A stretch of DNA of 61,647 bases from Candidatus Omnitrophota bacterium (GTDB lineage: Bacteria > Omnitrophota > Gorgyraeia > 2-01-FULL-45-10): contig JAPLME010000005.1 of NCBI GenBank assembly GCA_026387175.1, positions 1 to 61,647 on the forward strand, read 5' to 3'. A program made the translations under genes and the position numbers. Shown in pieces: positions 29,928 to 45,600 of this stretch (the stretch's first letter is position 1; every line of letters starts with the position of its first letter). The notes under the pieces were generated by a model, which saw nothing but the letters and a program-made list of their open reading frames with translations, had not been told where the DNA came from and made no database searches.

Positions 29928-30640
29928 CTACTCGGAAAAATATTTTAAAATAATTTGCAACAATTTAGCCTCTTTTAGCGTCTTTATATAGGGGGATATA
30001 AAGGCACGAAAGGAGGCATTTTTATGGCCAGACAGGGTAGATTGTTAGTGGATGGAGGCATATATCACATAACAAGCAGGGGGCATAATAGGTACAAGCT
30101 TTTTCATTCGTTAGATGATTACACGATTTATAAAAAATTGATAAAGGACTATAAAAAGAAATTCATTTTCGATGTATTTCATTATTGCCCCATGCCAAAT
30201 CATACACATATTTTATTACGGGTGAATAAAGGCGATGAATTACCTAGTATTATGCAGGGAATAAACCAATCTTATGCCAATCATTATAAGAAATGCTATA
30301 AACTTATAGGCAACCTATTCCAGGGGAGATATAAAAGTGTTTTTGTGGATAATGATGAATATTTGTTGGAATGCGGCAGATATATTGAAAGAAACCCTTT
30401 AAGGGCGGGTATAGTAACCGATCTATTGGACTATCATTTTTCTAGCTATAATTTCTATGCCAATGGTAGGAAAGATGACATAATCACTCCTAATCCTTGT
30501 TATCTTGAATTATCAAATGATCCGAAGGAGCGCATGAAATTATACAGAGAATACATTTTGAAAAAGCGGCCTTATGAGACCATAATAGATAAGGGATTGA
30601 AAATTTGAGATTACAGGGTGTCCCTTTTCAGGATGGCCCC
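29898..30640 (+). mobile_element. RAYT unit: Y1 (HUH) transposase gene bracketed by perfect 29-nt inverted REP copies
   Basis: 29898-29926 is the exact reverse complement of 30612-30640, and the only gene between them is the IS200-like Y1 transposase. Confidence 0.8.
30024..30608 (+). CDS. REP-associated tyrosine transposase (RAYT; IS200/IS605-like Y1 HUH transposase, COG1943)
   Basis: IYHITSRG, HUH motif PNHTHILL, catalytic-Tyr block LFQGRYKSV, then YIERNPLRAGIV...YHFSSY, as in RayT-type proteins. Confidence 0.85.
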   Translation: MARQGRLLVDGGIYHITSRGHNRYKLFHSLDDYTIYKKLIKDYKKKFIFDVFHYCPMPNHTHILLRVNKGDELPSIMQGINQSYANHYKKCYKLIGNLFQGRYKSVFVDNDEYLLECGRYIERNPLRAGIVTDLLDYHFSSYNFYANGRKDDIITPNPCYLELSNDPKERMKLYREYILKKRPYETIIDKGLKI

Positions 30641-31053: not shown

Positions 31054-31150
31054 AAATTATCCCTCTTTTTACATTAAGAGTATCACCTTTTCCGCAATAT
31101 GCAAGTTTCTTAGCGAAAAATTTGACAAACCCAAATATGTCAGGTATACT

Positions 31151-31226: not shown

Positions 31227-31436
31227 ATGATGCCGCTGAAAAATACTAAAAATTACTACTTGGCTCAAACTGTAGCGGACAAATTCGGGATTTCCAAGAA
31301 GACGCTTCTGGGATGGGAGAAGGACGGCAAGATATCCAAGCCCCCCAAAGACTGGCGCGGCTGGAGGATGTATAGCAACGGCCATATGGATGAAATAAGG
31401 AAGGTAATCGAGGAAAAAAGGAAAAAATTAAGTTAG
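31227..31436 (+). CDS. small MerR-type HTH protein
   Basis: YYLAQTVADKFGISKKTLLGWEKDGKISKP...WRMY fits the MerR N-terminal HTH pattern. Confidence 0.6.
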   Translation: MMPLKNTKNYYLAQTVADKFGISKKTLLGWEKDGKISKPPKDWRGWRMYSNGHMDEIRKVIEEKRKKLS

Positions 31437-31437
31437 C

Positions 31438-32283
31438 ATGAGCTATTATAAAATATTGGGATTAGATAAAGAGCCGTTCTCGACCAGCCCTGACCCTAAA
31501 TTCTTCTACGAGTCGAAAGAACATAAATCCGTCCTTTACAGGCTCAGGGTCGCCATCGAGCTGAGGAGGGGTTTGAGCGTTGTCCTGGGCGACGTGGGCA
31601 CAGGCAAGACGACGCTTAGCCGCAGATTGTCCCAGTTGCTCGGACTGGACCCGACCCTCATCATGACGATGATACTTAACCCGGTCTACGAATCCGAATT
31701 ACAGTTCCTCCGCGATCTGGCCGAAAGATTCCATATTAAAGCCGCTTACGCAACGCCCGCCGCGGAACCGACGGTCCTGGACTATCTGAAGGCCATAGAA
31801 AAATTCCTTTTCGATAAGGGCGTCGAAGGCAACAAGACCATAGTTATCCTGATAGACGAATCACAGAAGCTTAACCTCTCCTGCCTCGAGGTATTGCGTT
31901 CGCTCTTGAACTATGAGACCAATGAATTCAAGATATTACAGGTTATCCTCATGGGCCAGATGGAGCTTTTGCCGCGCATAAGCGGCATTAAGAACCTGTG
32001 GGACAGGATCTCTCTTAAATACGTGATAAATCCGCTCGAGGAGAATGAGGTAAGGGAGATGATAGAGTTCAGGCTTAAAGAGGCCGGGTATGTGTCGAGA
32101 TATCCGTTATTCACCGATAATTCGATAAGGGCTATATTCAACTATACTCAAGGTTATCCGAGGAAGATCGCCATGCTCTGCCACGACGCGCTGGAGTATC
32201 TCGTCATGCATAAGAAGGAGATGATCGATAAAGAAGTCATCGAGGCCCTGATCCGTAACGATGTGCAACCGGTTGACGTGTAG
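31438..32283 (+). CDS. ExeA/MshM-like AAA ATPase (secretin-assembly type)
   Basis: Walker A GDVGTGKTTL, Walker B VILIDESQ, ~280 aa, immediately upstream of a secretin operon. Confidence 0.7.
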   Translation: MSYYKILGLDKEPFSTSPDPKFFYESKEHKSVLYRLRVAIELRRGLSVVLGDVGTGKTTLSRRLSQLLGLDPTLIMTMILNPVYESELQFLRDLAERFHIKAAYATPAAEPTVLDYLKAIEKFLFDKGVEGNKTIVILIDESQKLNLSCLEVLRSLLNYETNEFKILQVILMGQMELLPRISGIKNLWDRISLKYVINPLEENEVREMIEFRLKEAGYVSRYPLFTDNSIRAIFNYTQGYPRKIAMLCHDALEYLVMHKKEMIDKEVIEALIRNDVQPVDV

Positions 32284-32289
32284 AATATA

Positions 32290-32985
32290 ATGGCTGAAAA
32301 TATTTCTCCAGAGGAACGTCTCTTCAAAGTCATACAGCAGGGGAAAAATTCGGCACCCGAAGAGGGCAAGCCCGGCGGCAAAAAGTTCGGCGAATGGCTG
32401 CGCGGATTAAAGCGTTTTATATCGGCGGTAGGCGCCCCGCCATCAGGAGAGAAGAAGGGTTTTAACTGGAAGACAATAATTCCGGCGAATTTAAAATTAC
32501 CCGAATTAGAGCCCGGAGTTATTAATAAGGTGTTGGCCGCGGCGCTCATCATAGTCGCGATCCTTGTCATATACGCGTTGACGAGCAAGCGCCAGGATAC
32601 CACGATGATCACGGACGCTGTTTCAAAGATCCAGATCGCTTCGGTAGGAGGCAATGAGAAGATAGAGCCTCTTAAGAAAGCCGATTTTTATCTTGCGGAG
32701 ATCCGCAAGAGGGATATATTCCATCCTATTCCGAAGGAAGCGGTGACGGAAACGAAACAGGGCGCATCGGGCAAGTTAAAAAAAGCGGCCGAAAGCCTGA
32801 AGCTCCAGGGGATCTCGTGGGGTCCCGCGCCGAAAGCCATGATACTATGGCAGAACGATAAAGAGGGCAACATGTATTTCCTTACGAAGGGCCAGACGAT
32901 AGGCTCGACCGGCATTAAGATAAAGGAAATACGCAAGGATAAGGTAGTGATCGGTAATGACGAGGAAGAGATGGATCTCTTATGA
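32290..32985 (+). CDS. bitopic membrane protein with GspC/PilP-like C-terminal domain (putative secretin partner)
   Basis: Single central TM (VLAAALIIVAILVIYAL). C-terminal LKLQGISWGPAPKAMILWQNDKEGNMYFLTKGQTIGSTGIKIKEIRKDKVVI resembles the beta-sandwich HR/PilP pattern. Overlaps the secretin start. Confidence 0.4.
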   Translation: MAENISPEERLFKVIQQGKNSAPEEGKPGGKKFGEWLRGLKRFISAVGAPPSGEKKGFNWKTIIPANLKLPELEPGVINKVLAAALIIVAILVIYALTSKRQDTTMITDAVSKIQIASVGGNEKIEPLKKADFYLAEIRKRDIFHPIPKEAVTETKQGASGKLKKAAESLKLQGISWGPAPKAMILWQNDKEGNMYFLTKGQTIGSTGIKIKEIRKDKVVIGNDEEEMDLL

Positions 32986-34577
32986 GACAGAACGCGATAA
33001 TTAAGCTATGCGTTTTTGGCGCGATTGCCGCGGTTATCTTTATCTCCAGCGCCTATTCCGAGGCAGATGCCCCTATTGCGGGAATAGTGGCGCGTAAGGC
33101 CATATCCGATTATGATTTTCCCGGGCTAAAGAAGAAGATATCGCTCGATATAAGGGCGATGGACGTGACGCAGTTCCTGAAGTTCCTTGCCACCGACGGA
33201 AACCTGAACATAATAGCGAGTAAAGCCGTTACCGGCCCTATAAGCCTCCTGATAAATGACGTGACCATAGGCGACGCGCTCGAGATAGCTCTTTCGATGA
33301 ACGGCTTCGCTTATCAGATAAAGGGCAATATCATCACAATAATGACGACAGCCGAATTTAAGACAATGTTCGGAGTGGAATTCTACGACCAGCGCGAGAC
33401 GGCCGCGTATCAACTGAAATACGCTTCCCCTAAAAATGTGGCTACGATCCTCGGCAATATCAAGAGCGAAATCGGCAAGATAATCTATGACGACAGCACG
33501 GGAACGCTGATCCTTATAGACACTCCGGCGAAGATAAAAGAGATGGGCGATATTATCGCTAAACAGGAACTGCCCACAGTTTCGAGAGTCCTGCCCACAG
33601 TGACAAGGGTATATGAATTTAAATATGCGAAGGTGGACGTTGTTAAAGACGAGATCTCAAAAGCCCTTACCCCGGACGTGGGGACGATACGTTCCGATTT
33701 GAGGACCAATACCATAGTGATCTCGGACCTGCCGTACCAGCTGGAGAAGCTGGATGTCCTGATCAAGGCATTCGACAGGAAGACGAGGGAGGTCTTCATC
33801 GAGGCCAAGATCGTCGAGGTTACCCTGAGCGACAAGTTCCAATGGGGCATTGACTGGTCCAGGATAATACAGATGGCCGGAAGCCTCAGCGCGATAGCTA
33901 TCACTCCGCAGGTCTCGCTTCCTCTTAATCTGGCTGCCGGAGCAATAGGTAAGATGACCGTGGCTACGACTTCCACCAATAAGTTATCCATTATTCTTGA
34001 GACACTCGGCACGGTGGCCGAGACGAGGATACTTTCGAATCCGCACATAACCGTTGAGGAGGGGAAAGAGTCAAAGATAGAGGTCATAGAGAAACAGCCG
34101 TATGAAGAAGATACTACGACGACAGCCTCGGGAGGGACGACGACAGCCTCAAAGAGTTATCAATGGGTGAATATCGGCGTGACGCTGAGCGTTACGCCGC
34201 GTATAAACCCTGACGGCTTCATAAGTATGCTGATAAAACCGGAAGTGAGCTCCATATCGGCATGGTACGGTGGAGCGGCGCAGGCGGCAGGCGCTGTGCC
34301 TGTAGTTAAATCCGCCAATGCCCAGACGACGGTTACAATAAAAGACGGCGTCACGATAATAATTGCCGGCCTGGTGAAAGATAATAAGACTAAGACGGTG
34401 AATAAGATACCGTTTTTAGGCGATATACCGTGGGTGGGCCTTGCCTTTAAAAAGTCAACTGATGAGATAGTCCGGACGGAGACAGTAGTGTTTTTGACGC
34501 CGCGGATAGTGACGGGAGAGGATACGTTCCTCCTCGAAAAAGATATGCCAAAACCGTCCAGGGGCATCAGGAAGTAA
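32982..34577 (+). CDS. outer-membrane secretin (GspD/PilQ/MshL family)
   Basis: N-domains (ITIMTT..., LILIDTPAKIKEM), secretin core (RILSNPHITVEEGKESKIEV), and C-terminal IPFLGDIPWVGLAFK...TETVVFLTPRIV. Confidence 0.88.
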   Translation: MRQNAIIKLCVFGAIAAVIFISSAYSEADAPIAGIVARKAISDYDFPGLKKKISLDIRAMDVTQFLKFLATDGNLNIIASKAVTGPISLLINDVTIGDALEIALSMNGFAYQIKGNIITIMTTAEFKTMFGVEFYDQRETAAYQLKYASPKNVATILGNIKSEIGKIIYDDSTGTLILIDTPAKIKEMGDIIAKQELPTVSRVLPTVTRVYEFKYAKVDVVKDEISKALTPDVGTIRSDLRTNTIVISDLPYQLEKLDVLIKAFDRKTREVFIEAKIVEVTLSDKFQWGIDWSRIIQMAGSLSAIAITPQVSLPLNLAAGAIGKMTVATTSTNKLSIILETLGTVAETRILSNPHITVEEGKESKIEVIEKQPYEEDTTTTASGGTTTASKSYQWVNIGVTLSVTPRINPDGFISMLIKPEVSSISAWYGGAAQAAGAVPVVKSANAQTTVTIKDGVTIIIAGLVKDNKTKTVNKIPFLGDIPWVGLAFKKSTDEIVRTETVVFLTPRIVTGEDTFLLEKDMPKPSRGIRK

Positions 34578-34599
34578 GGAAAAAGAGCGGAGATGCGAA

Positions 34600-36225
34600 A
34601 TGAAAAATAAATTGACGATATTATCGATAGGCATATTTACGATATTGTGTGTCACGCGCTCCTATAGCACTGAGGCCATAGCCGAAACCAGTATGTCGGA
34701 TCTGCAGAATGCGGAGAAGGGCGTCCATCGTCTGGAGGGTAAACTGCAGAAGAGGGAGTATGATCTCAAGAAACGCGCGGAATATGAAAAGGTGCAGACG
34801 ACCGAGATGAAGAAGTGCGATGAGTTGAAGAGCGAAATATGGAAGCTTAAAGACAGCGCCAAGGCATTGGATGTAAAACTCGCGAAGCTCGCCTCCGATA
34901 AGAAAAAAGCCGAAGAGGAGCTAGTCGGGCAGACTAAAATATACGAAGCCAGAGAAAAGGGCATAAAGACGACCGAGGACGAAATAAGCGCCGAAGATAA
35001 GCAGTTTAAGCGTTTAGCCGAGGCGGGTGAGAAGGAGAGCAGCGAGCGGAAGACGAGGATAGATAAGCTTAAAGAGGGCTTAAAGTCGCCGGAGGATAAG
35101 ATAGAATCGCTCACAAACGAAAAGAATAAGATCGATGAAAATTTGAAGGCGAAGGACACTGAATATAAAGCCGAGACGGATAAATTGAAAGCGTTAAGGG
35201 CCAGGCTCGCGTCGGAGAAGAAAGAAGGCGCTTCTGTGAAGAAGGGCGCTTCCGCGAAAGAGGAGCCGCCTGTTAAGGATGAGTCAGAGGAAATAAAGAA
35301 GAAGATGGATGATCTGATGGTGGAGGCGCAGAAATTGGAATCCGCCAGACAAAAACTGTCGGACGAGCTCCTGACTGCCAATGAAGCAAAAAGATCGCAG
35401 GAAGAAGAGGTAAAAGCGCTGGAGAACGAGGATGTCTCAAAAGCGAAAGACCTTAAATCGCGGTCAGGGGACCTGGGGAAAAAGAAGAAAGCTACACAGG
35501 TAAAGGTGGAGAAGCTGAGGAAGAAAGCGATCTCGGCAAAATTTAAAGTGCAAGCAGACACCGCTGCTGTTAAAAAACTGGATGATGACATAAAACTTGC
35601 CACGCAGGAGAAGCACCGGATAGAGAAAGCTTTAAAGGAAAAGACGGATGAATTAAAGGTCAGGGTATCGGTGTTATTGGAGCATAACACCGAGGACAGT
35701 CTCGCGTATGAAAGCGATAAAGAGGCGCAAGCCAAGGCCGCGTCCAGAGGCGAGGAACTGAGCGCCAGGCTGGATAAGATATTCGAGGCCATGAAGGATG
35801 AGAATAACCGCCTGATGGTCGAGAATAAAGAGATGCAGGCCAGGCTGGGGCGCGCCGAAAATGCCGCGAGAGAGGCAAGGCGTAAAGCCGAAGCGGCCGC
35901 GAAAGCCCCGGAGGAGATGAAGGTAAAGTTGAACAAAGAGAGGCTGGATGCGCACTTTAACACCGCGGTCATGTATGAAAAGAACGGTTTATGGCACGAT
36001 GCGGAGAGGGAATACCTTAAATGCCTGCGCATAGATCCTAAGGACGCGGGAGTGCATTACAACCTGGGAATACTTTATGACGATAAGTTGAACATGAACA
36101 ATAAGGCGTTATATCATTATTATAAGTTCCTGTCTCTCCGCCCCATGGGAGAGACGGCCGAACGCGTGAGGGACTGGATAACCAAGATGGAGCTTGAAAA
36201 CCGTCTGGGAAAAGAGCTGAGGTAG
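34600..36225 (+). CDS. secreted K/E-rich coiled-coil protein with C-terminal TPR repeats (MshN-like position)
   Basis: Signal-like N-terminus, ~400 aa of heptad-like K/E/A sequence, then TPR-like AVMYEKNGLWHDAEREYLKCLRIDPKDAGVHYNLGILY. Confidence 0.6.
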   Translation: MKNKLTILSIGIFTILCVTRSYSTEAIAETSMSDLQNAEKGVHRLEGKLQKREYDLKKRAEYEKVQTTEMKKCDELKSEIWKLKDSAKALDVKLAKLASDKKKAEEELVGQTKIYEAREKGIKTTEDEISAEDKQFKRLAEAGEKESSERKTRIDKLKEGLKSPEDKIESLTNEKNKIDENLKAKDTEYKAETDKLKALRARLASEKKEGASVKKGASAKEEPPVKDESEEIKKKMDDLMVEAQKLESARQKLSDELLTANEAKRSQEEEVKALENEDVSKAKDLKSRSGDLGKKKKATQVKVEKLRKKAISAKFKVQADTAAVKKLDDDIKLATQEKHRIEKALKEKTDELKVRVSVLLEHNTEDSLAYESDKEAQAKAASRGEELSARLDKIFEAMKDENNRLMVENKEMQARLGRAENAAREARRKAEAAAKAPEEMKVKLNKERLDAHFNTAVMYEKNGLWHDAEREYLKCLRIDPKDAGVHYNLGILYDDKLNMNNKALYHYYKFLSLRPMGETAERVRDWITKMELENRLGKELR

Positions 36226-36226
36226 G

Positions 36227-37432
36227 ATGCGCGTAAATGTAGTGCTCATATTTATTCTGTCGGTGCTGATACCCACGGCTCTTCTGGCCTACTTCGGCCT
36301 GCAGGCCGTCAGGAGCGAAAAGTCGATAGTCGAAACGAACATACGCCGCGTCTATGAGTCTATGGCGGATGTAGTGGAAGATGAGATAAGGGCCGCCCTT
36401 TATGGGTTATCCGAGTCATCTCTAAGGAATAAATCTAAAATAGAGCCGCTCATGGTGGACCAGGCCGCGATGTTTAATTATCAGGTGAAGATATTCGACA
36501 CCGCCGGCAGGCCGCTCGGCGGGGATCCCTCCAGGGAACTCGGAGCTCCCGTTCTCAGAAAGAATATAAAAGGGATGCCCTACGTAATAGCGGTTTATGA
36601 AAAGTATCCCGCGGTCATAAAGGGCCTTGAAGAGAGGAAACACCGCCTCTCCTCATATATAGCGATAATTATATTTTCCGCGCTCTTTGTATTAGGCGGG
36701 AGCTTCTTCACTTTAAGCGTACTATCGAGAGAATGGCGCCTGACGGAGCTTAAGAGCGAATTCGTGTCGAGCCTGTCGCACGACCTGAGAAGGCCCCTCA
36801 CCTCGATACGCATGTTCTCGGAGATGCTGAAGAACGATAGCGTTCCCAGCGAAGAAAAAAAGCGGGAATATTATAATATCATTTCCGGTGAAAGCGAGCA
36901 GCTCACTAACCTGGCCAATAACATACTTGACTTTTCCCGTATCGAGCGCGGCCGTAAGAGATATGAATTTAAGGATGAGGATATAACGAAGATAGTCAAT
37001 TCGACAGTGGAGCGTTTTAAGTCCTATATGGTGCATGAGTCCTGCAATGTATTTTTGAATATTGATAAAGATATCCCTGTATTAAAGATAGACGCCGATT
37101 CGATATCCCAGGCGATCACGAATCTGCTGACAAACGCATTCAATTATTCACCGTTCGACAAGACGATAAAGATAAATGTAGCGAAGAAAGCCAATGAAGT
37201 GGCCATCGAGGTCATAGACAGCGGAGTGGGGATACCGCGGAAGGAACAGAAGAAGATCTTCCGCAGATTTTACCGTGTTAACCAGAAAGATATGAATGTG
37301 GAGGGCTCCGGGCTCGGCCTTACGCTCGTGAAATATGCCGCCGAAGCGCATCGCGGCAAGGTCACCGTGGAGAGCCGTGAGGGCCATGGGTCGAAGTTTT
37401 CGTTGCTGCTTCCGGTGAACGCGCATGTATAA
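36227..37432 (+). CDS. sensor histidine kinase (two TM, HisKA + HATPase_c)
   Basis: H-box SHDLRRPLTSI, N-box LLTNAFNYS, G-boxes DSGVGI and GSGLGLTLVK. Confidence 0.88.
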   Translation: MRVNVVLIFILSVLIPTALLAYFGLQAVRSEKSIVETNIRRVYESMADVVEDEIRAALYGLSESSLRNKSKIEPLMVDQAAMFNYQVKIFDTAGRPLGGDPSRELGAPVLRKNIKGMPYVIAVYEKYPAVIKGLEERKHRLSSYIAIIIFSALFVLGGSFFTLSVLSREWRLTELKSEFVSSLSHDLRRPLTSIRMFSEMLKNDSVPSEEKKREYYNIISGESEQLTNLANNILDFSRIERGRKRYEFKDEDITKIVNSTVERFKSYMVHESCNVFLNIDKDIPVLKIDADSISQAITNLLTNAFNYSPFDKTIKINVAKKANEVAIEVIDSGVGIPRKEQKKIFRRFYRVNQKDMNVEGSGLGLTLVKYAAEAHRGKVTVESREGHGSKFSLLLPVNAHV

Positions 37433-38099
37433 GATACTGATAGTAGAGGATGATAAAAATATAATGACGGGCCTCGTAGACAATCTCGAGCTCGAAGGCT
37501 ATAAGACGATCATTGCTCGCGACGGCAAGGAAGCGCTCAGACAGGCCAAAGAGAAGGGGCCGGACCTTATCCTATTGGACATCATGCTTCCGAGGCTGAA
37601 CGGGTTTGAAGTCTGCAAGGAATTGAAGCTGCAGGGTATAAGGGCGCCCATCATAATTTTAAGCGCCAGGGCGCAGGAGGCGGATAAGGTGCTGGGGCTC
37701 GAGCTCGGGGCGGACGATTACATCACCAAGCCGTTTTCACCTCGCGAGCTTGTCGTGAGGGTCAAGGCGGTATTGCGCAGGATGGAGAACGCCGGTAAAG
37801 AGGAAGACGTCTACGAATTCGACGGGATAAAGATAGACTTTAAAAAATATATGATCTATAAGGGCCAGGAGGAGATAAGCCTCACAGCCGCCGAACATAA
37901 GATATTGAAACTGCTTGTATCGAACCGCGGAGAGCCTGTATCGAGGCACACTATGCTTGCGCAAATATGGACCTCCGAAGAGGTTACGACGCGGACCGTC
38001 GATACCCATATATGGAGCCTGAGAGAGAAGATAGAGAAGAACCCCGGCGCGCCGGAGCATATCATCACGGTCCACCGGGTCGGGTATAAGTTCGTGTAG
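37425..38099 (+). CDS. OmpR/PhoB-family response regulator
   Basis: Receiver ILIVEDD...DLILLDIMLP...K, and winged-helix tail TRTVDTHIWSLREKI...ITVHRVGYKF. Confidence 0.9.
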   Translation: MYKILIVEDDKNIMTGLVDNLELEGYKTIIARDGKEALRQAKEKGPDLILLDIMLPRLNGFEVCKELKLQGIRAPIIILSARAQEADKVLGLELGADDYITKPFSPRELVVRVKAVLRRMENAGKEEDVYEFDGIKIDFKKYMIYKGQEEISLTAAEHKILKLLVSNRGEPVSRHTMLAQIWTSEEVTTRTVDTHIWSLREKIEKNPGAPEHIITVHRVGYKFV

Positions 38100-38105
38100 A
38101 AAAGC

Positions 38106-38147
38106 TTGACAACTTCTTGACAACTTATTGGCGTTATTCTGACAACA
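38106..38147 (+). promoter_or_regulatory. phased direct repeats TTGACAACTT x2 plus TGACAAC: candidate OmpR-family binding site
   Basis: TGACAAC starts at 38107, 38118 and 38140 (offsets 11 and 22 bp). The third overlaps a -35-like CTGACA, 19 nt upstream of TATACT (38164-38169). Confidence 0.45.
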
Positions 38148-38197
38148 CGTTTTACGATGTAGTGTATACTTAAGTGTAGGATTTGATAGAAATGTAG

Positions 38198-38221
38198 TAG
38201 GGGAGGTTTAAACCTCCCCTA
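38198..38221. repeat. perfect 24-nt palindrome TAGGGGAGGTTTAAACCTCCCCTA
   Basis: Exact self-complementarity, lying between the putative promoter and the DUF2341 gene start. Confidence 0.7.
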
Positions 38222-38258
38222 CATAGAAGTACCGGTCGTGCTATTACAGGACACTACA

Positions 38259-40835
38259 ATGGAAAAGATGAGACGTTTCCTGAGTATTGGAATTATACTT
38301 ATTATGGCGATGGCGGCCATATTTGTCAGCGCGCCTGCCGAAGCCGCCAAGATTGCCGAAGCCGCCGAGACTTCCGACGCTCAGAATAAAGCTATATTTA
38401 TCCGGCCGCTCATATGGCGCGCTGACTCAAGCGCAAGCTACTCATTTAAAGGCGCCGCATTAGAAAACGCGGATCTTGCGACCGATGGGTCAGTGAGGTC
38501 CTACGACACTTCCAACGGAACAGTCGAACTTCCCAATCCATATAAGACGGACGGCTCCGTAACCGGGCTATCGGCAAGCTGGTCATTTACGGGCAAAGTG
38601 ACCCTCGAGGTAAGTATCACAGGCAGCTCGAAAGATTATGTCGAGGTAATAAACGGCGTTCCGGTTACTTATAAAGAGCCGTACGCCGGCTCCGGGATAA
38701 AATGGCGGGCGACCCTCGCTCCAAATAGCACGCTTACCGATCTTAAGATAACCTATTCAGACCTTTCCGGTGTCGTGGGCAGTTTCGGAGAGAGCCTGCT
38801 TTCCGGATTCGGCGCGAGAAAATGGATCTATGTAAAAGGCTCCGCGGCCGGAACCCTTTTTAATTATCAGATGCCTATAAGAGTGGGCGAATCACAAAAA
38901 TCTGTCGGGACCTGCGACTTTAAATTAAGCGGAGGCATCCTGTCCGATTTTGCCGATATAAGGTTTACGGCGACCGATGGAGAGACCATATTGCCTCACT
39001 ACCTGGAAAGCGTTACCGGCAAAGCGCCTAACCGCACAGCCGTTTTCTGGGTCAATATACCCGAAATCCCTAAGAACGGCCTTCCTATATATATGTATTA
39101 CTCTAAGACAGGCGCTTCCGACCTGTCGAGCGGCGAGAAGGTCTTTGACTTCTTTGACGATTTCGGCGGCGCTCTCCTTAATGGCAAGAAATGGAAGACT
39201 GTGCTGTATGACAAGGCGGGCAGCGCCAGCGTCAAAGATTCCATCCTTTCACTTACAAGGGCGAAGATTACCTCCGCGGACTACAAATTCGCGAGCGGCC
39301 TTATAGAATATAAAGCCCGGGCATCAGCGAGCGGCTCTTCAGAAGGAATTATAAGGGCCACCTCGTCAGGTAATGATGACGTGATAGCTTATTCTTCAGT
39401 TTCCTCGAGCGCCTCAGCTCACAGTATCACCAAAGGTTCCGGCACAAAAGCGAATGACCCGAAGCCTATATCCCCGGATGCCTTCTACACTTACAAGATA
39501 TACTGCGATGATAACGGGGACATAGCTTTCCGGAGATACGGCGAAGACGGCTCGGGAACCGCGCAGGCCGAGACGGAATATTTGGCAGGATCGAGCGAGG
39601 CTTCACCGATAGGCCTGTCATCCTCGATAATCGGCGAAACGATGAGCTGTGACTGGATACGGACGCGCAAAGCCGCCAACCCACCTCCGCAGGTTGATAC
39701 GAGGACGGCTTCCATGGCCCCGGAGGCAACGAATCTGCCGGAATTTTACAATGTATCCATAGCGCCTGATGGAGGCCTCATCCCGAGCAGCGATAGTTCA
39801 GAAAGTTATTACATCTCACGGCTCATCAGCCCGGCTTTCGATGCCCGGATAATAAAGCCTTCCTGGGACGTCGATCTATCCGATGAGGAATCAGTTTCCA
39901 TCAGCATCGCCGTTAAAAATGGCGGGAAGTTTTATTCTGACTGGAAGAACGGCGCTGCCCGCTACGCCTCTAAGAAGGAATTTGATAAGGGCAGCCAATT
40001 AAGGTGGAAGGCGGAATTCGGAAGCGAGGGCATAGAGCTTAAAAAATTCAGCCTGGAATACAGGCCCGGCACCATCCGTGTGGTGATGCCAAAAGGCGGA
40101 GAGACTCTTACTTCGGGCGCCAGCTACAGCATATTCTGGGAAGCCGCCGGTTATGATCCGAAATACCCTCTGGAGATATCGTATTCAAAGGATGACAGCG
40201 AGGATTTCGAGGTGATCGCCGCAAAGGTGGACAATTCCGGTGACTATGCCTGGAATGTGCCGGCCGGAGTATCCGGTAAGGCGGTGATGAAGGTCGCGGA
40301 TTATAATGATAAGTCCATTTACGGCATATCAGAAGATTATTTCTCGATCGTGTCAGGAGTGACCGCAGAGACCAAGGTTCGGGCCGCGGAAGAGGTAGGG
40401 GTTATAGAGAGCGTGACGCCGGCGGAAGAGAAGCCGGCCGAAACTCCAAAGGCTGTAGAGAAGCCGCTTGCGGGTATGTACGATCTTCTTATTAAGGTAG
40501 GAGACAATCCGTCACCCGATGGGTATAAGGACGGCGATATAGTGATGGTAAAGCCGGCGGGATATTTATGGGGCGCCGAGGAGAGAGGAAAGTTTCTCAT
40601 CGTGCGTACCTATCTTACCCCCCAGAGAGCTTTAGAATTAATGCAGCCCGACGAGATGGTTACGCTTACGGGTAAGTCAAATCGCAAGGTCACTAAAACG
40701 CTGAATAAGAGAAAATACCGTTTTAACCTGCAGGACAAGATCACTCTGCAGGAGAGGGCAAAAGCGGCGCAGGGACACCTGACCGGTAATGCCCTGGAAG
40801 TAAAGGACATAGCGGCGGAGACCGAGAAGAAGTAA
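38259..40835 (+). CDS. secreted DUF2341 + LamG/concanavalin-like domain protein
   Basis: Signal MEKMRRFLSIGIILIMAMAAIFVSAPAEA. The block WIYVKGS...FNYQMPIRV...DFADIRFTATDGETILPHYLE...AVFWVNIPEIP...IYMYY is the DUF2341 pattern as I recall it, followed by FDFFDDFGG (LamG-like). ATG 38259 preferred over GTG 38238. Confidence 0.65.
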   Translation: MEKMRRFLSIGIILIMAMAAIFVSAPAEAAKIAEAAETSDAQNKAIFIRPLIWRADSSASYSFKGAALENADLATDGSVRSYDTSNGTVELPNPYKTDGSVTGLSASWSFTGKVTLEVSITGSSKDYVEVINGVPVTYKEPYAGSGIKWRATLAPNSTLTDLKITYSDLSGVVGSFGESLLSGFGARKWIYVKGSAAGTLFNYQMPIRVGESQKSVGTCDFKLSGGILSDFADIRFTATDGETILPHYLESVTGKAPNRTAVFWVNIPEIPKNGLPIYMYYSKTGASDLSSGEKVFDFFDDFGGALLNGKKWKTVLYDKAGSASVKDSILSLTRAKITSADYKFASGLIEYKARASASGSSEGIIRATSSGNDDVIAYSSVSSSASAHSITKGSGTKANDPKPISPDAFYTYKIYCDDNGDIAFRRYGEDGSGTAQAETEYLAGSSEASPIGLSSSIIGETMSCDWIRTRKAANPPPQVDTRTASMAPEATNLPEFYNVSIAPDGGLIPSSDSSESYYISRLISPAFDARIIKPSWDVDLSDEESVSISIAVKNGGKFYSDWKNGAARYASKKEFDKGSQLRWKAEFGSEGIELKKFSLEYRPGTIRVVMPKGGETLTSGASYSIFWEAAGYDPKYPLEISYSKDDSEDFEVIAAKVDNSGDYAWNVPAGVSGKAVMKVADYNDKSIYGISEDYFSIVSGVTAETKVRAAEEVGVIESVTPAEEKPAETPKAVEKPLAGMYDLLIKVGDNPSPDGYKDGDIVMVKPAGYLWGAEERGKFLIVRTYLTPQRALELMQPDEMVTLTGKSNRKVTKTLNKRKYRFNLQDKITLQERAKAAQGHLTGNALEVKDIAAETEKK

Positions 40836-40844
40836 GTGGGGCTT

Positions 40845-40931
40845 GAGATTGCAGGGTGTCCCTTTGCAGGATGGCCCCAAAGCGGGCCAAAGCGGATGAG
40901 ATTGCAGGGTGTCCCCTTGCAGGATGGCCCC
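40845..40931. repeat. REP-family copies (reverse orientation): two units, 53-nt period
   Basis: GAGATTGCAGGGTGTCCCTTTGCAGGATGGCCCC (40845-40878) and GAGATTGCAGGGTGTCCCCTTGCAGGATGGCCCC (40898-40931). The spacer holds a CCAAAGCGG duplication. Confidence 0.9.
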
Positions 40932-40964
40932 AGGAGCGGGTTGTTACAGAAGAAGGTGACGGAC

Positions 40965-42524
40965 ATGATTACTAGAAAATGGTTACTTACACTATTATTA
41001 TTAAGCATATTTGCTATGACATTATCTACTGAGGCCATGGCGAATAATATCACCGTCTCTAACGTCTCCTTATATAAAGCATCGGGACAGCCGAACGGCA
41101 CGATAGGCATAAAATTCGATCTTGCATGGGATAACTCTTTCAGCGCCGTAGATAATAACGGCAATGCCTTTTTCGATCGCGCCTGGATATTCGTGAAGTA
41201 CTTTGACGCCGCAAATGCCAGCACCGACACAGCTTGGAGCCATGCCACCTTAATTTCAGGCGGGACAGTAAGCAATTATAACGCCCAGAGTGGGACCGGA
41301 ATAAGCGCTGACCAAAAAGGCGCTTTCTGTAGGCCCGGGACCAACCAGATTGTGTACTGGGATTACACCACCGATGGAGTCTCTTCCTCGGCTTCTATCT
41401 CGGTCAAAGTTATGGCGATAGAGATGGTCTATGTGCCAACAGGCTCGTTCTATGTCGGTTCAGGCGGCACCGAAACAAACGCTTTCTATAACTATCCCAA
41501 CACCACCAGCCCTTATAAGATAACCTCTGAAGATTCGATTACTGTGGGCACAACCACCGGAAATCTCTATTACCCGAATTCAAATACTTATGGCGGCGAT
41601 CAGGCAGGCCCAGTACCCGTCGCTTTCCCCAAAGGTTATAACGGTTTCTACATGATGAAATACGAAGTTAACCAGGGCCAATACCGGGATTTCTTGAATA
41701 CGCTCAGCCGCGCCCAGCAAAACCAAAGGGCCGGAGACGGAACAACCCTGGCTTCGGGCACAACATCCGTAACCAATATATATGTTATGCCAAATACCAG
41801 TATTGCCGCTAATATCGCTTCCGCTTCTAATTATCGTAATGGAATACGATGTGACGCCACTATTCCCGCGACTACCCCAATAACGTTTTACTGTGATTAT
41901 AACAATAATGGTACGCCGAACGAAGCCACTGACGGCGAATGGATAGCCTGTAATTATGTAAGCTGGCCCGACTTATGCGCCTATGCCGATTGGGCAGGGC
42001 TTCGTCCCTTTACTGAGTTTGAATTTGAAAAAGCGTCCAGAGGACTAAATACTTCGATAGCCAATGAATGCACATGGGGCTCAACCGTTATTACTGCCGG
42101 CCCTACAGGCCCGACCAATCCCGGCGCTAATAATGAGACAGCCACTAACAATGCCAACTGTAGCTATAACGGTACTGTGTCCGGCCCTATGCGCGTAGGA
42201 TTCGCTGCGACCAGCTCTTCAAGCCGTTATGCCTCGGGCGGCTCCTATTACGGAATAATGGAGCTTTCCGGGAACTTATGGGAACGATCGGTCACCGTAG
42301 GTAATAGTACCGGCCGGTTATTTATTGGTAGCCACGGAGATGGTAATTTAAGCACAACTAATACCGACTGGCCGGGAGCTAACGCGACCGGCTCGGGCTA
42401 CCACGGCGGCTGTTGGAACAACGACAATTTCAACGCTGGTGTGTCGGCCCGTACCTACGCGGCGACCGCGAGTGCTGGTCGCACCCTCACTTTCGGCATC
42501 CGCTGTGCCAGGACGGCTCAGTAG
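40965..42524 (+). CDS. secreted FGE-sulfatase (SUMF1/C-type-lectin-fold) domain protein
   Basis: Signal MITRKWLLTLLLLSIFAMTLSTEAMA. YEVNQGQYRDFL, VSWPDLCAYADWAGLRPFTEFEFEKASRG, MELSGNLWERS, HGGCW and FGIRCA match the PF03781-type pattern. The track start at 40836 is made of repeat sequence. Confidence 0.75.
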   Translation: MITRKWLLTLLLLSIFAMTLSTEAMANNITVSNVSLYKASGQPNGTIGIKFDLAWDNSFSAVDNNGNAFFDRAWIFVKYFDAANASTDTAWSHATLISGGTVSNYNAQSGTGISADQKGAFCRPGTNQIVYWDYTTDGVSSSASISVKVMAIEMVYVPTGSFYVGSGGTETNAFYNYPNTTSPYKITSEDSITVGTTTGNLYYPNSNTYGGDQAGPVPVAFPKGYNGFYMMKYEVNQGQYRDFLNTLSRAQQNQRAGDGTTLASGTTSVTNIYVMPNTSIAANIASASNYRNGIRCDATIPATTPITFYCDYNNNGTPNEATDGEWIACNYVSWPDLCAYADWAGLRPFTEFEFEKASRGLNTSIANECTWGSTVITAGPTGPTNPGANNETATNNANCSYNGTVSGPMRVGFAATSSSSRYASGGSYYGIMELSGNLWERSVTVGNSTGRLFIGSHGDGNLSTTNTDWPGANATGSGYHGGCWNNDNFNAGVSARTYAATASAGRTLTFGIRCARTAQ

Positions 42525-42553
42525 TGACTGAGTGAGGTTGAGAAGTCAAGGGA

Positions 42554-42651
42554 CAGGGTTCAGGGTGCAGGGTACAGGAGAGTGAGATTGAGGAGTGAGG
42601 GAAGAGGGTGAAGATTTTTTCTGAACCCTGGGCCCTGCCCCCTGAACCCTG
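42554..42651 (+). promoter_or_regulatory. long imperfect inverted repeat in the leader of the giant gene
   Basis: CAGGGTTCAGGGTGCAGGGTACAGG (42554-42578) against CTGAACCCTGGGCCCTGCCCCCTGAACCCTG (42621-42651), about 20 of 25 complementary by eye. It ends 3 nt before the GAGGA RBS (42655-42659). Confidence 0.5.
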
Positions 42652-42666
42652 ATAGAGGATAAGACG

Positions 42667-45600
42667 ATGAAAACTATGACGGGTAAGACAATTCGGGTGA
42701 TCGTAGCTCTAACGATGGTGTTACAGCCGTTAATGAGCGAGAGCGCCTATGCCCAGTTCGCCGGTGGAAGCGGCGCCGGCTGGGGAACAGCCGTGACATC
42801 ATCCAGCACGACGTTAAGCTCCGTAACTGCCGACACTAACGTCAAGCTCATTCGCGCGAGCCAGACGGTCACCTATGTCCAGCGATTATCCGGTGGCAAT
42901 TCTCTTATCACTTTGAGCGCCGCTTTTCCCAATAATAACCTTAAAGTAGGGCAAAAGATAGTTGTAAACGTTACTACCAATACCAGCTTTAACGGCACCT
43001 TCACTATTACCTGGGTCGCTAGCGATTATTGCTCTTTCAAATATTATCAACCTCTGGGCACTGTAGCTTCAACAGCCGACACGGGCACAGTCGGCGGTCA
43101 CTACTCTTCGCTTATCGGCTGGGAAGCGGCCGGCGGCAACACAACCGCCGAGTGTTATAATGACTGGGCGAGCGGCCTATCCGAAAACCTGACCATTTCC
43201 GGCAATAGCGCAACATCTACGAGTTACATGAAGATTACTGTTCCTTTGAGTGAGCGAAATACCGGCTCGACCGGCACGGGCTTCAAGTTGGCGGGGACTC
43301 TTACGGTCGGGGATAGCTATGCGGCCATTGAAGACATTGAGGTAACCGGCGTCGCCACAGTGTCGTCCGGCATGACCCTTAACACCAATGGCAATATATT
43401 GTTCACCGGCGGCCTCACGATCGAAGGTACGGCAACGCTTAACGCCGGAAACTCGAATATGGTATTTAGCTCAGGAGACATCAGCCTCTTCGGAATGCTT
43501 AACGCCCAGGGTTCGATGATAACGTTTAACGGTTCCACAGTAGCGCTCAGTAACAGCGTATTTACTCCCGGCCAGGCGACGATAGCGTTTTCCGGAACAT
43601 CGAGCTGGACGCCGGGCACCGTAACATACAAAACCGTAGAATTCGGTTCAGGCACGACGACCATTACCGGGACAGCCACGGTCGCCAATAAAGTGGTTCT
43701 TGCCACCGGCTCCTCCGGCGCCGTTAACGGCGGCGCGATTACCTTAACGGGCGATTTAGTCTGCACATCCGGCACCGGCGGCACGACCGCGATCACGTTG
43801 AACAGCACCGCGCAGCCGCAGTCCATTTCCGGCGGAGGCGCCGCCACATTGCCCCAAACCATCAACATTAATAAGTCCGGCCAAACCACCACGGTTTCTG
43901 GCGCCATAGGCCTGCAGAATGTCAATATACAGGCTGGCACCGTCGAGTTCGCCGGCGGTTATAACTACACTATCGGCGCCGGCAAGACGATCGCCTTGAG
44001 CGACACTCCAAGCGCTATCCTTAAATTTACCGGCACCAGCGCGTCGAGAAAGGTTACGCTGAGGAGCTCATCGCCGGGGACCGCCTGGAACCTGACCAAT
44101 CCGGCCAGCGCGGTAGTCACGCCGGTTCTTACGGATGTGCAGGATTCTGTTGCCTCCAGAGCGTCGGTAGACGCTACCAACGCGGGCAATATTAATAGCA
44201 GCAGAAATACCAACTGGCTCTTTGACGCAGCCGGCATTGTTTACTGGACCAATGGCTCAGGCGACGGCAAATGGTCCACAGCCGCTAACTGGTCCACAGG
44301 AGCTGTGCCAATCTCGACTGATTCAGTTATTTTCAATAATACCTCAACCACAAACTGCGCAGTCGACCAGACAGTTACTATTGCCAATCTCACTCTTAGC
44401 GCAGGATACTCCCCCGGCACTGTAACCTTAAGCCCAACAGCAGGGCAGGATCTAACCGTTACTAATACTATTGCCTTAAATGCCAACGGTGGAAAACTTA
44501 CAGATAATGGCAGGAATGTGAATTTTGTAAATTCCACAATTGCTAACGATACACCCATTAACAATCTCTTTAGCACCGGAAACTGGAAACAGACAGCCAG
44601 TGGAACCATTTCCGGCCCTTCCGGCAATAGCATGTTTAACAGTCTTGAAATAGCCGCAGGAGTTATTTCAAACTTTAGCGCCGGCGGATGCTTTATTAAA
44701 AAAAGTCTTACACTCAGGAGCAATTCTTCAATAGTTGGTGCGGATATATTACTTTACGGCTCCGGCTTAATAAATGATTGTATTGTGATGGAGACAGGTT
44801 CAACAATTCCTTCTTCTTCAACGATTGAGATATATGCTGCAGGCGCCGATCTAACTCAAGGGGCTTTATCTATAGGTGGAAATCTAAGGTTAGATTACAT
44901 TAATAATCATTCTGTCGCCATGACCGGAGATTGGAATATCGGTGGAAATTTGGAAATCTTTGGGTATTCTCCTTCAGGCTCAACTGCCACATTAGACACC
45001 AATAGCCATAACCTTACGGTAGGCGGTTATCTACAAGTAGGAAACAGTAATCCTTCATATGCCAATGGCATGCTTGGCAAAATCCTGTTTAAGGGCGGCA
45101 CTCACACCATCAGCGGAAATATTTATGTTGGCGGTGGAAGCACGTCTTCAACTTGTAATACCCATGGTTACATTGACTTTGGCTCAAGCACAGTAAATGT
45201 GGTAGGAAATATTGACTTTAGGTGTGCCTCAGTTACTCCCGGAACCTCAACCGTAAACCTTACCGGCACAGGCACAACTAATATTTATTCAATAGTCGAT
45301 TATACCTATAAAGACGCTACCTTAGATAACCCGGTATTAAATACCGCACCGCTCTATAAATTAACCTCAAGCGTAGCTGGCAAGACCATTAGCTTCGAGG
45401 CAGGGAAGACCGTAACAATAGCCAACAACCTGAGCCTTGCCGGAACCGGGACGGGCGCTAATCTCCTGACCTTAAACTCCACCACAGCAGGCACTGCAGC
45501 TAACCTAAATGTTTCAGGCACAGCTACCGGCATGAACTACTTGAGCGTTAAAGACTCCAATGCTTCGAGCGGAAAAGGCATCATAGCCATTAACTCTACC

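Follow-up and report, generated by a model that had tools for sequence, protein, structure and literature searches.

Genes of the secretin locus

We analysed a stretch of 61,647 nt from Candidatus Omnitrophota bacterium (assembly GCA_026387175.1, contig JAPLME010000005.1, forward strand), hereafter the window, in which a secretin gene lies within a compact run of seven genes, here called the cassette. The cassette is followed by genes for secreted proteins, its putative cargo, namely a DUF2341 protein, a protein with the FGE-sulfatase Pfam domain, and a giant open reading frame (ORF). The window sequence is present in freshwater and lake metagenomes, and the nearest relatives of the locus are metagenome-assembled genomes (MAGs) labelled Candidatus Omnitrophota. 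All nine genes and the open-ended giant ORF lie on the + strand (Table 1); an earlier reading made from the letters alone (the sequence-only reading) had listed them in this order and orientation, and the ORF map and the Pfam and NCBIfam scans agreed with it throughout. The minimal gaps that it described hold from the MerR-like gene to the response regulator (intergenic distances of −8 to +22 nt), which indicates one operon, but not beyond it: with the probable later starts of the DUF2341 and FGE-fold genes, the latter with a good ribosome-binding site, each of the three cargo genes is preceded by ~130–160 nt. A sigma-70-like promoter candidate sits 77 nt 5' of the first cassette gene. The absence of pilins, of a GspE/PilB ATPase, and of a platform protein, also part of that reading, was confirmed 5' of the giant ORF, the window ORF scans giving no GspE, GspF, or prepilin-type gene in these 42.6 kb. 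The window ends inside the giant gene, and the region 3' of that gene lies outside.

Table 1. Features of the secretin locus and of two related loci; positions are those of the window unless a locus is named
Feature	Position	Strand	Remarks
Sigma-70-like promoter candidate, cassette operon	31122..31150	+	TTGACA-17-TATACT, 11/12 matches, consensus match only
Small MerR-type helix-turn-helix (HTH) protein, 69 aa, first cassette gene	31227..31436	+	PF13411 (MerR_1), 29.2 bits, above cut-off
AAA+ ATPase, GspA/ExeA/MshM type, cytoplasmic	31438..32283	+	AAA_22 4.6e-18
Bitopic inner-membrane protein	32290..32985	+	T2SSC 1e-3, TIGR01713 1.9e-4
Secretin, 531 aa: signal peptide, N0 (STN), 2x Secretin_N, secretin domain	32982..34577	+	PF00263 4e-44
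Coiled-coil/TPR protein with signal peptide	34600..36225	+	TPR_17 and others
Sensor histidine kinase: two transmembrane segments, ~115-aa periplasmic loop, HisKA, HATPase_c	36227..37432	+	
OmpR/PhoB-family response regulator	37425..38099	+	REC 2.4e-30, Trans_reg_C 8.4e-23
Conserved promoter element, four TTGACAAC boxes phased at 11 bp	38105..38170	+	alignment A4 of 9 loci
Perfect 26-nt palindrome GTAGGGGAGGTTTAAACCTCCCCTAC	38197..38222	+	DUF2341 gene 5' leader; unique in window
Secreted DUF2341 protein, first cargo gene	38238..40835	+	PF10102 2.1e-20; probable start ATG 38259, 858 aa
Secreted FGE-sulfatase-Pfam (C-type-lectin-fold) protein	40836..42524	+	PF03781 3.3e-13; probable start ATG 40965, ~519 aa
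Two 36-nt direct repeats, 97% identical, 53 nt apart	40844-40879, 40897-40932	+	gap between DUF2341 and FGE-fold genes
Long GC-rich imperfect hairpin, CAGGGT-type repeats	42536..42651	+	covers the greater part of the 142 nt 5' of the giant gene
Giant ORF	42667..61647	+	from ATG, at least 6327 codons, no stop before window end
L012 repeat pair	98-230 and 889-1021		all 133-nt mismatches at template-repeat (TR) adenines; reverse transcriptase (RT) gene (RVT_1) 1110-2177
L020 repeat pair	19414-19550 and 20086-20222		17/17 mismatches at TR adenines; bAvd and RVT_1 adjoin

The MerR-type gene heads the cassette in several relatives as well (L005, L011, L019, L020, L022, L024, L025, and L026; L-numbers denote the loci of relatives that were compared with the window cassette). 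The ATPase next to it (281 aa, Walker A GDVGTGKTT, Walker B IDESQ) consists of the ATPase domain alone and is by its AAA_22 domain homologous to the N-terminal AAA+ part of GspA/ExeA. It is 36% identical over 252 aa (E 4e-38) to the N-domain of a 571-aa Aeromonas caviae ORF, unannotated and taken as ExeA by its size and by the 227-aa ORF that follows in the ExeB position, and 33% identical to the GspA of Ideonella, whose next gene is annotated as gspB. These two proteins were used for comparison because the Escherichia coli references proved too divergent: when the GspA, GspB, and GspC of E. coli K-12 were set against the window proteins, there were no profile matches and the only alignment was that of GspA with the window ATPase at the P-loop. 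Unlike ExeA, the window protein has neither a transmembrane segment nor a peptidoglycan-binding domain, and it resembles the short MshM/TIGR03015 architecture; a search against PDB sequences gave no match. An identity as the XrtA/PEP-CTERM-associated ATPase (TIGR03015, 1.4e-49) was rejected, its score of 168.9 bits falling below the cut-off of 324.5, and so was a PEP-CTERM/exosortase reading of the locus, as there is no exosortase gene among the window ORFs and the DUF2341 and FGE-fold proteins carry no PEP-CTERM tags.

From its N-terminus, the bitopic protein consists of a cytoplasmic part with the motif SPEERLFxVIQ, one transmembrane segment (~aa 79–103), and a periplasmic domain of the GspC-HR/PilP type (~aa 130–231). 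The top two PDB matches of a profile made from 53 bitopic sequences (A8) were the HR domain of GspC (3oss_C, E=4.6e-7) and PilP (3jc8, 8.3e-5), and with this topology, the HR-type domain, and its GspC position in complete operons (see below) we predict it to be a GspC-type protein. It ends at aa 231, with no PDZ domain or coiled coil after the HR-like domain, and scores 21 bits with TIGR01713 against a cut-off of 101.6; alignment of the profile (hhalign) to the single sequences of the putative Aeromonas ExeB and of Ideonella GspB was not significant. In alignment A8 the N-terminus (32290-32340 in the window) reads SPEE[RK]L[FL]..I and is nearly invariant in cassette-type and operon-type paralogues alike, which points to a conserved peptide for docking, perhaps onto the AAA+ ATPase encoded next to it.

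The third member of this triad clearly belongs to the secretin superfamily (Secretin_N x2 2.8e-18, STN 5.4e-8) and ends in a conserved C-terminal tail, FLLEKDMPKPSRGIRK. Its class is less clear-cut. Among the NCBIfam models it scored 215.7 bits for GspD (TIGR02517, cut-off 351), 221.4 for PilQ (TIGR02515, cut-off 284), and 163.8 for MshL (cut-off 250), thus reaching none of them, and among PDB sequences 119 bits for PilQ and 110 for GspD; judged by these scores, it is about equally similar to the PilQ and GspD classes.

The coiled-coil/TPR protein is made up of ~400 aa of charged coiled coil, then a highly conserved C-terminal domain of 2–3 TPR repeats. While these C-terminal 145 aa are 43–79% identical in relatives, the coiled coil varies, bringing the total length to anything between 347 and 1120 aa. 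No canonical lipobox was seen at the N-terminus. Profile searches of PDB with the TPR domain gave designed consensus TPRs (up to 1e-56) and PilF (1.4e-3), and the Tgl model reached 27.5 bits against a cut-off of 225. The similarity is therefore of a generic TPR kind and gives no support to a PilF/MshN-type pilotin; the MshN position that the sequence-only reading had assigned to this protein stands as a position only. Inside the coiled-coil gene, an antisense ORF of 456 aa (34662-36032, −) with an S/F/L-rich low-complexity translation was rejected as a gene and taken as a by-product of the purine-rich K/E codons of the sense strand (AT skew 0.35).

The kinase gene starts 1 nt past the stop of the TPR gene and overlaps the regulator gene by 8 nt, an order that is kept in relatives, where the regulator is 67–92% identical. 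By their domains (HisKA and HATPase_c with REC and Trans_reg_C) the two form a two-component system of the OmpR/PhoB family; no equivalog cut-off was reached, the top NCBIfam match of the regulator being RpaB (224 bits, below cut-off).

Spread of the cassette and complete type II secretion operons

The seven-gene cassette, from the MerR-like HTH gene through the response regulator, is present in at least 17 Omnitrophota lineages. In the seven MAG loci of the first round of searches (secretin 67–85% identical), the ATPase, bitopic protein, secretin, TPR protein, kinase, and regulator are all kept as far as the contigs reach. The upstream neighbours differ among relatives (V-ATPase, a chorismate-binding enzyme, ribosomal protein S2, or MnmE), and the same cassette beside such unlike genes indicates that its genes move or persist together. 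A profile search extended the set to 80 loci, with cassettes also in MAGs labelled Verrucomicrobiota, Kiritimatiellia, Lentisphaerae/Victivallales, Planctomycetota, UBP3, Binatia, and Auribacterota. These non-Omnitrophota cassettes, often with the kinase/regulator pair and in some cases without it, have secretins 39–48% and ATPases 50–56% identical. No GspE, GspF, or pilin genes were found within ±10 kb in nearly all of the ~75 cassette loci, the exception in the window clade being L042 (secretin 56% identical), which has GspG and GspH directly 5' of the cassette.

In two more distant Omnitrophota (L100 and L103), the ATPase, the GspC-like protein, and the secretin are the final three genes of a full type II secretion system (T2SS) operon, which starts with GspE (with MshEN domain), GspF, GspG, and three more pseudopilins, including a GspJ-like one, and continues with a GspK-like protein, a PilM-PilN fusion, and a PilO/GspM-like protein before the triad. 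A search seeded with the GspE of this operon gave 80 Omnitrophota loci, and most of those with enough sequence keep the whole E...M-A-C-D order. Compared with the window, the operon triad has 55% identity in the ATPase (measured in L103), ~24–28% in the bitopic protein, and 36–39% in the secretin. Homologous to the end of complete E-F-G...M-A-C-D operons, the triad in the window is of T2SS descent. The window cassette, however, has none of the E, F, pseudopilin, L, and M genes of the canonical Omnitrophota operon, and it adds what that operon does not have, i.e., the coiled-coil/TPR gene, the kinase/regulator pair, and a promoter made of repeated boxes (see below).

A neighbour-joining tree places the window-type secretins in a clade of their own, sister to those from MAGs of the Planctomycetes–Verrucomicrobia–Chlamydiae (PVC) type and apart from the operon-type secretins. 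The C-termini follow the same division, since window-type secretins end in a FLLEKDxPKPxKGIR tail and operon-type ones in a TonB_C-like domain (L103:9863-11893, L100, L116, L123, L131, and L151). Both kinds occur together in MAG STD1_87, where L143 is a complete operon that includes a triad of its own and L037 a cassette of the window type, followed by cargo; the two contigs are similar in coverage (4.2x and 4.6x), and the two secretins fall in different clades. Had a complete operon elsewhere laid claim to the window-type secretin, the sequence-only reading would have fallen; in STD1_87, the one genome that allowed this comparison, the complete operon has a secretin of its own. Judged by the tree, the tails, and this MAG, the window triad is a paralogue of the end of the canonical operon and not its detached end.

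Promoter element and cargo genes

Immediately 3' of the regulator gene there is a promoter element, conserved in relatives, that consists of four boxes (in order cTTGACAACTT, cTTGACAACTT, aTTGGCGTTAT, and tCTGACAAC), with a -10-like TATACT ~20 nt further on (38165-38170). The element can be aligned across nine loci, whereas the flanking intergenic sequence cannot. Searched with a two-box regular expression, 14 of the 17 window-clade loci have it 3' of the regulator gene, against a background of 3 and 5 matches, respectively, in 2.25 Mb and 1.2 Mb of unrelated loci (~1–4 per Mb). It precedes the DUF2341 gene in most loci, a gene for a 3553-aa LamG protein in L026, and, in L012, immediately the giant ORF; in L019 it stands before small genes, with a second copy before the gene of a 4701-aa protein. 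It is absent in L025, the only lineage with housekeeping genes after the cassette. OmpR/PhoB-family regulators bind phased direct repeats, and we regard the boxes as a candidate binding site of the cassette response regulator. As in PhoB, OmpR, and RpaB regulons, a regulator with REC and winged-helix domains is paired here with 11-bp direct repeats overlapping the -35 region, although the window has four boxes and not two; the HLR1 site of RpaB is a similar direct repeat of the TT(T/G)ACA type. Between the element and the DUF2341 gene there is the perfect palindrome of Table 1, at which the Logan contigs of a public run break (word depth ~196x), so that the palindrome is repeated in that metagenome.

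Large secreted proteins are what typically follows. Among the window-clade loci with at least 3 kb of sequence after the cassette, 16 of 17 encode a secreted protein of >800 aa next. These are DUF2341 proteins of 850–910 aa in ten loci, LamG_3-rich and open-ended ORFs of >2000 aa in L038, L039, and L047, the 3553-aa protein of L026, and, in L019, the 4701-aa one, an RCC1/WD40 protein. The order cassette, DUF2341, FGE-fold, and giant gene recurs in Zod_Metabat.83 (giant N-terminus 52% identical), in bin-627 over two contigs (40%), and on a single 51-kb contig that ends in a 4770-aa giant. The conservation of synteny on which the sequence-only reading depended is thus borne out for the cassette, and the full order down to the giant gene in three other genomes or populations. 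Homologues of the giant N-terminus come after FGE-fold or DUF2341 genes in L027 (52%), L012 (40%), L024 (32%), L035, L037, and L085, and in the UBP3 MAG L085 and in L076 both DUF2341 and giant-N-terminus homologues follow the cassette. Large proteins with lectin folds come after it in distant lineages, too (L085, L076, L088, L047, and L098).

The junction between cassette and cargo has insertions in several relatives (L027:3045-4445, L021:14509-15217, the P0135 contig, and L009:9703-12167). Among the inserts are an ORF of 466 aa that separates kinase from regulator, genes of the Polbeta/HepT and HEPN/AlbA_2 types, and, in L022 and L028, a 23S_rRNA_IVP gene that is Avd-like. Small genes of mobile or defence-like character have a hot spot here.

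All three cargo proteins of the window begin with Sec-type signal peptides, read from their sequences, which fits a two-step export through a secretin. For the first of them, the sequence-only reading had proposed DUF2341 and LamG domains; Pfam returned the former and no LamG match, while the lectin fold found support in a structure model. This AlphaFold2 (AF2) model, made from a 39-sequence alignment (predicted local distance difference test, pLDDT, 85.7; predicted template modelling score, pTM, 0.78), gave with Foldseek domain-level matches only, to the carbohydrate-recognition domain of the L-type lectin Emp46p, FN3/Ig domains, a levanase beta-sandwich, and a phage baseplate. As modelled, the DUF2341 protein is a chain of binding-type beta-sandwiches (ConA-like/L-type-lectin and Ig/FN3-like) with no recognisable enzyme. 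An identity as MshQ was rejected, as NCBIfam and tblastn against a plasmid collection were empty and the sources give only the name 'DUF2341 domain-containing protein'. Related modules reach much greater length elsewhere: the 1.5-Mb Omnitrophota genome CP070797.1 (L185, 1-13003) encodes a 7443-aa protein with DUF2341, many Laminin_G_3, and FG-GAP domains directly 5' of a 1000-aa orthologue of the window DUF2341 protein, and DUF2341/LamG modules can hence grow into giants themselves.

The giant protein has, after its signal peptide, a conserved N-terminal region of ~260 aa, then T/G/S/N-rich all-beta sequence. Pfam gave only spurious summed 'Amnionless' matches and a self-BLAST for repeats nothing useful; a single-sequence AF2 model of residues 1–800 was unreliable (pLDDT 45.7) and was left out of the fold search.

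The FGE-fold protein has orthologues that are targets of diversity-generating retroelements (DGRs). In L012 and L020 the 3' 133–137 nt of the orthologous gene are repeated downstream at 88–89% identity, the mismatches falling at TR adenines, and a third contig has the same gene order with bAvd and RVT_1. These DGRs, located between the FGE-fold and giant genes of relatives, are active-looking by their sequence. The FGE-sulfatase Pfam domain is the usual match of DGR variable proteins of the class of Treponema TvpA and Bordetella phage Mtd, and the orthologues of the window protein share with that class a 3' variable region (VR), a template repeat, and the bAvd and RT genes. The window copy, however, has only a VR-like scaffold, its 3' end (42388-42524) aligning to the variable regions of the orthologues, with no template repeat and no RT gene among the ORFs of the 61.6 kb. 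An FGE/SUMF1 identity in the strict sense has behind it a fold-level Pfam match, and no sulfatase gene was seen in the window; the targeting of its orthologues by DGRs favours a role in binding over an enzymatic one.

Possible role of the cassette and other features of the window

The region can be read as an accessory secretin cassette, conserved and self-regulated, with its cargo genes behind it and with export through the secretin, and to this reading as a whole we give an even chance. Homology and synteny establish, at the level of sequence, the composition of the cassette and its paralogy to the operon end; the steps that follow are more tentative. By analogy with GspC and GspD, the HR domain of the bitopic protein would hold the N0 domain of the secretin, and the SPEERLF peptide would couple the bitopic protein to the ATPase, as ExeA and ExeB act together for ExeD. 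The TPR domain would bind the conserved tail of the secretin, the variable coiled coil serving as spacer or scaffold, and the regulator would bind the four boxes just 3' of its own gene and then activate the genes that follow. The most tentative step is the exit of the periplasmic DUF2341, C-type-lectin-fold, and giant proteins through the cassette secretin. The paralogy of the triad with the last genes of complete operons makes it likely that a pseudopilus and platform are available from other loci, and export would most probably use those of the canonical T2SS, the paralogous GspC/secretin pair providing cargo specificity, which is among the most tentative points too. Secretin channels (~6–7 nm) pass folded toxins, pili, and filamentous phage and would admit a fibre of the beta-solenoid type. 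The cargo set itself resembles a prey- or host-binding toolkit, with lectin folds that are retroelement-diversified in relatives and a fibre-like giant.

Several observations weigh against this reading. Cargo identity varies among lineages, and in L025 the cassette has no adjacent cargo. The co-occurrence of operon and cassette comes from one MAG, STD1_87, possibly a mixed bin, and E-M operons without an adjacent A-C-D triad exist in other Omnitrophota (L112, L114, L121, L122, L126, L128, L175, and others), so that in some genomes a stand-alone cassette could be the only secretin. The window does not hold a complete T2SS, the search for GspE, GspF, and pseudopilins having covered the window only. 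The link between boxes and regulator derives from their position, their conservation, and the binding habit of the OmpR family. The single box copy of the window stands 5' of the DUF2341 gene, and there is none 5' of the giant gene, only the long hairpin, so its co-regulation would depend on read-through from the DUF2341 promoter. Metatranscriptomes of lake samples gave 3–4 short, partly matching Logan contigs and no usable expression signal.

Among the alternatives, the one that fares best is that the cassette is the GspA-C-D end of the only T2SS of the genome, detached from E-M and serving general secretion, with the neighbouring large proteins as ordinary substrates or merely co-regulated neighbours. 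It would agree with the homology of the triad to the operon end, with the GspG and GspH genes of L042, and with the triad-less E-M operons just mentioned. We nevertheless consider it rather improbable, given the complete operon and the additional cassette of STD1_87, the separate secretin clade with its own tail and linked TPR protein and two-component system, and a cargo link that is kept across lineages.

Still less probable, in our view, is a stand-alone conduit, in which secretin, GspC-like tether, ATPase, and TPR protein would together let very large proteins exported by Sec leave the cell with no need of a pseudopilus. The lack of GspE, GspF, and pilin genes in the window and around nearly all cassettes speaks for it, as do an ATPase of its own and the tight linkage to cargo and a dedicated regulator. 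However, secretins have to our knowledge been characterised only as partners of an inner-membrane machine (T2SS, type IV pilus (T4P), type III secretion system, or phage pI/pXI). The cassette ATPase, a cytoplasmic protein, belongs with the GspA/ExeA assembly factors, which are not known as translocation motors, and the same triad sits inside the complete T2SS operons of other Omnitrophota. The sequence-only reading had likewise seen an outer-membrane conduit rather than a complete T2SS or T4P, of which the incompleteness of the locus stands and a conduit without machine becomes less likely, the triad being paralogous to the end of a complete operon. We equally doubt the boldest version, an unrecognised class of cargo-linked secretin machine spanning phyla, made up of the GspA-like ATPase, GspC-like tether, secretin, and coiled-coil/TPR scaffold, that would export lectins and adhesins of several thousand residues without a pseudopilus, its two-component system switching on both machine and cargo, perhaps when the cell meets prey or a host.

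It is also unlikely, to much the same degree, that the locus is a regulatory neighbourhood only, where the two-component system controls the large-protein genes while their products use another route or stay in the envelope, and the triad serves a pilus, DNA uptake, or other substrates beside a variable cargo island. A downstream region that is variable and rich in mobile elements in relatives (DGRs, toxin-antitoxin-like, and HEPN/AlbA genes, with a Y1 transposase upstream), the cargo-free cassette of L025, and a giant C-terminus, the place for other secretion signals, outside the window would favour it, but the kinase and regulator genes abut or overlap their cassette neighbours and stay with the secretin and TPR genes in many distant lineages, where lectin-fold large proteins still come after the cassette.

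Returning to the accessory cassette with cargo, the sequence-only reading had gone one step further and seen a dedicated export, display, and regulatory apparatus for the giant protein. Variable cargo, and its lack in one lineage, speak against that dedication, whereas the box promoter appears to tie the downstream genes to the cassette, and giant genes follow the boxes directly in two relatives. We take the cassette to be a regulated accessory module with variable large cargo and is not specific to the giant gene of the window, although the giant protein, too, would be exported through the window secretin.

Three known arrangements offer comparison. The ExeA-ExeB-secretin module of Aeromonas and Vibrio shares a homologous AAA+ ATPase, a small bitopic protein, and a secretin in this order, and there too the bitopic protein has a C-terminal domain of the secretin-binding type (HR/PilP family). 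The window differs from it in the ATPase architecture described above, in a bitopic protein that does not significantly resemble the putative Aeromonas ExeB, Ideonella GspB, or E. coli GspB, and in an operon that also encodes a TPR protein and a two-component system. In the mshK-mshL-mshM-mshN genes of the mannose-sensitive haemagglutinin (MSHA) pilus of Vibrio, the secretin MshL adjoins the short ExeA-like ATPase MshM and the TPR protein MshN; the window gene order differs, MshE/G, pilins, and MshI/J are missing, and the TPR protein resembles MshN in position alone. Alternative or orphan secretins, such as XqhA of Pseudomonas aeruginosa, plug into an existing T2SS, and STD1_87 likewise has a second secretin away from its main T2SS operon. 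Unlike such orphans, the window secretin comes with GspC-like and GspA-like partners, a TPR protein, a two-component system, and cargo, in a cassette conserved across phyla. A literature search on orphan secretins gave animal-hormone papers only.

Giant genes of Omnitrophota have been described near T2SS-, T4P-, and Tad-like genes, namely gspD, gspE, gspF, rcpC, and a Rotamase_2 isomerase (preprints including bioRxiv 10.1101/2023.11.21.568195). The window follows this published pattern in having secretion genes by a giant gene and departs from it in lacking the rcpC/Tad-type genes; in L026 a Rotamase_2 gene lies between the cassette and the 3553-aa gene. Term searches of the Omnitrophota giant-gene preprints found no two-component system, DUF2341, or DGR, and by such searches the cassette, the box promoter, and the retroelement-diversified lectin were not found described there. 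Prior work on Omnitrophota giant genes only noted secretion-like genes nearby; for the transport across two membranes of proteins with thousands, or even tens of thousands, of residues, the locus provides a concrete, compact, and widely conserved candidate of seven genes with a defined promoter element. It leads to testable predictions on the pairing of regulator and box, on the pairing of GspC/secretin and cargo, and on a lectin-type recognition kit that is retroelement-diversified in some lineages. A paralogous GspA-C-D triad with its own regulators, common to Omnitrophota and PVC-labelled MAGs, also bears on how T2SS specificity modules evolve.

The remaining window genes are mostly housekeeping ones (RNase Y, XseAB, Dxs, 2-oxoacid:ferredoxin oxidoreductase, GluRS/GlnRS, and cysteine and iron-sulfur genes), together with a small lipoprotein gene. 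A cluster of four tRNA genes (Gln, Leu, Glu, and Ser; 24089-25505) is followed by a 1387-aa ORF (25695-29858) with no Pfam match and with homologues only in identical contigs; in L019 (85% identical), Fic, Cache, and TPR genes replace it in the GlnRS/nucleotidyltransferase neighbourhood. Just 5' of the cassette lies a gene for an IS200-like Y1 transposase of the REP-associated type (30024-30608, +), also found 5' of the cassette in L005, L020, L026, L038, L039, and L047. GC-rich CAGGGT-type hairpins and repeats occupy intergenic spaces, both in the window (42536-42651) and in L009, and with the Y1 transposase they could be a system of repetitive extragenic palindromes and their associated tyrosine transposase (REP/RAYT).

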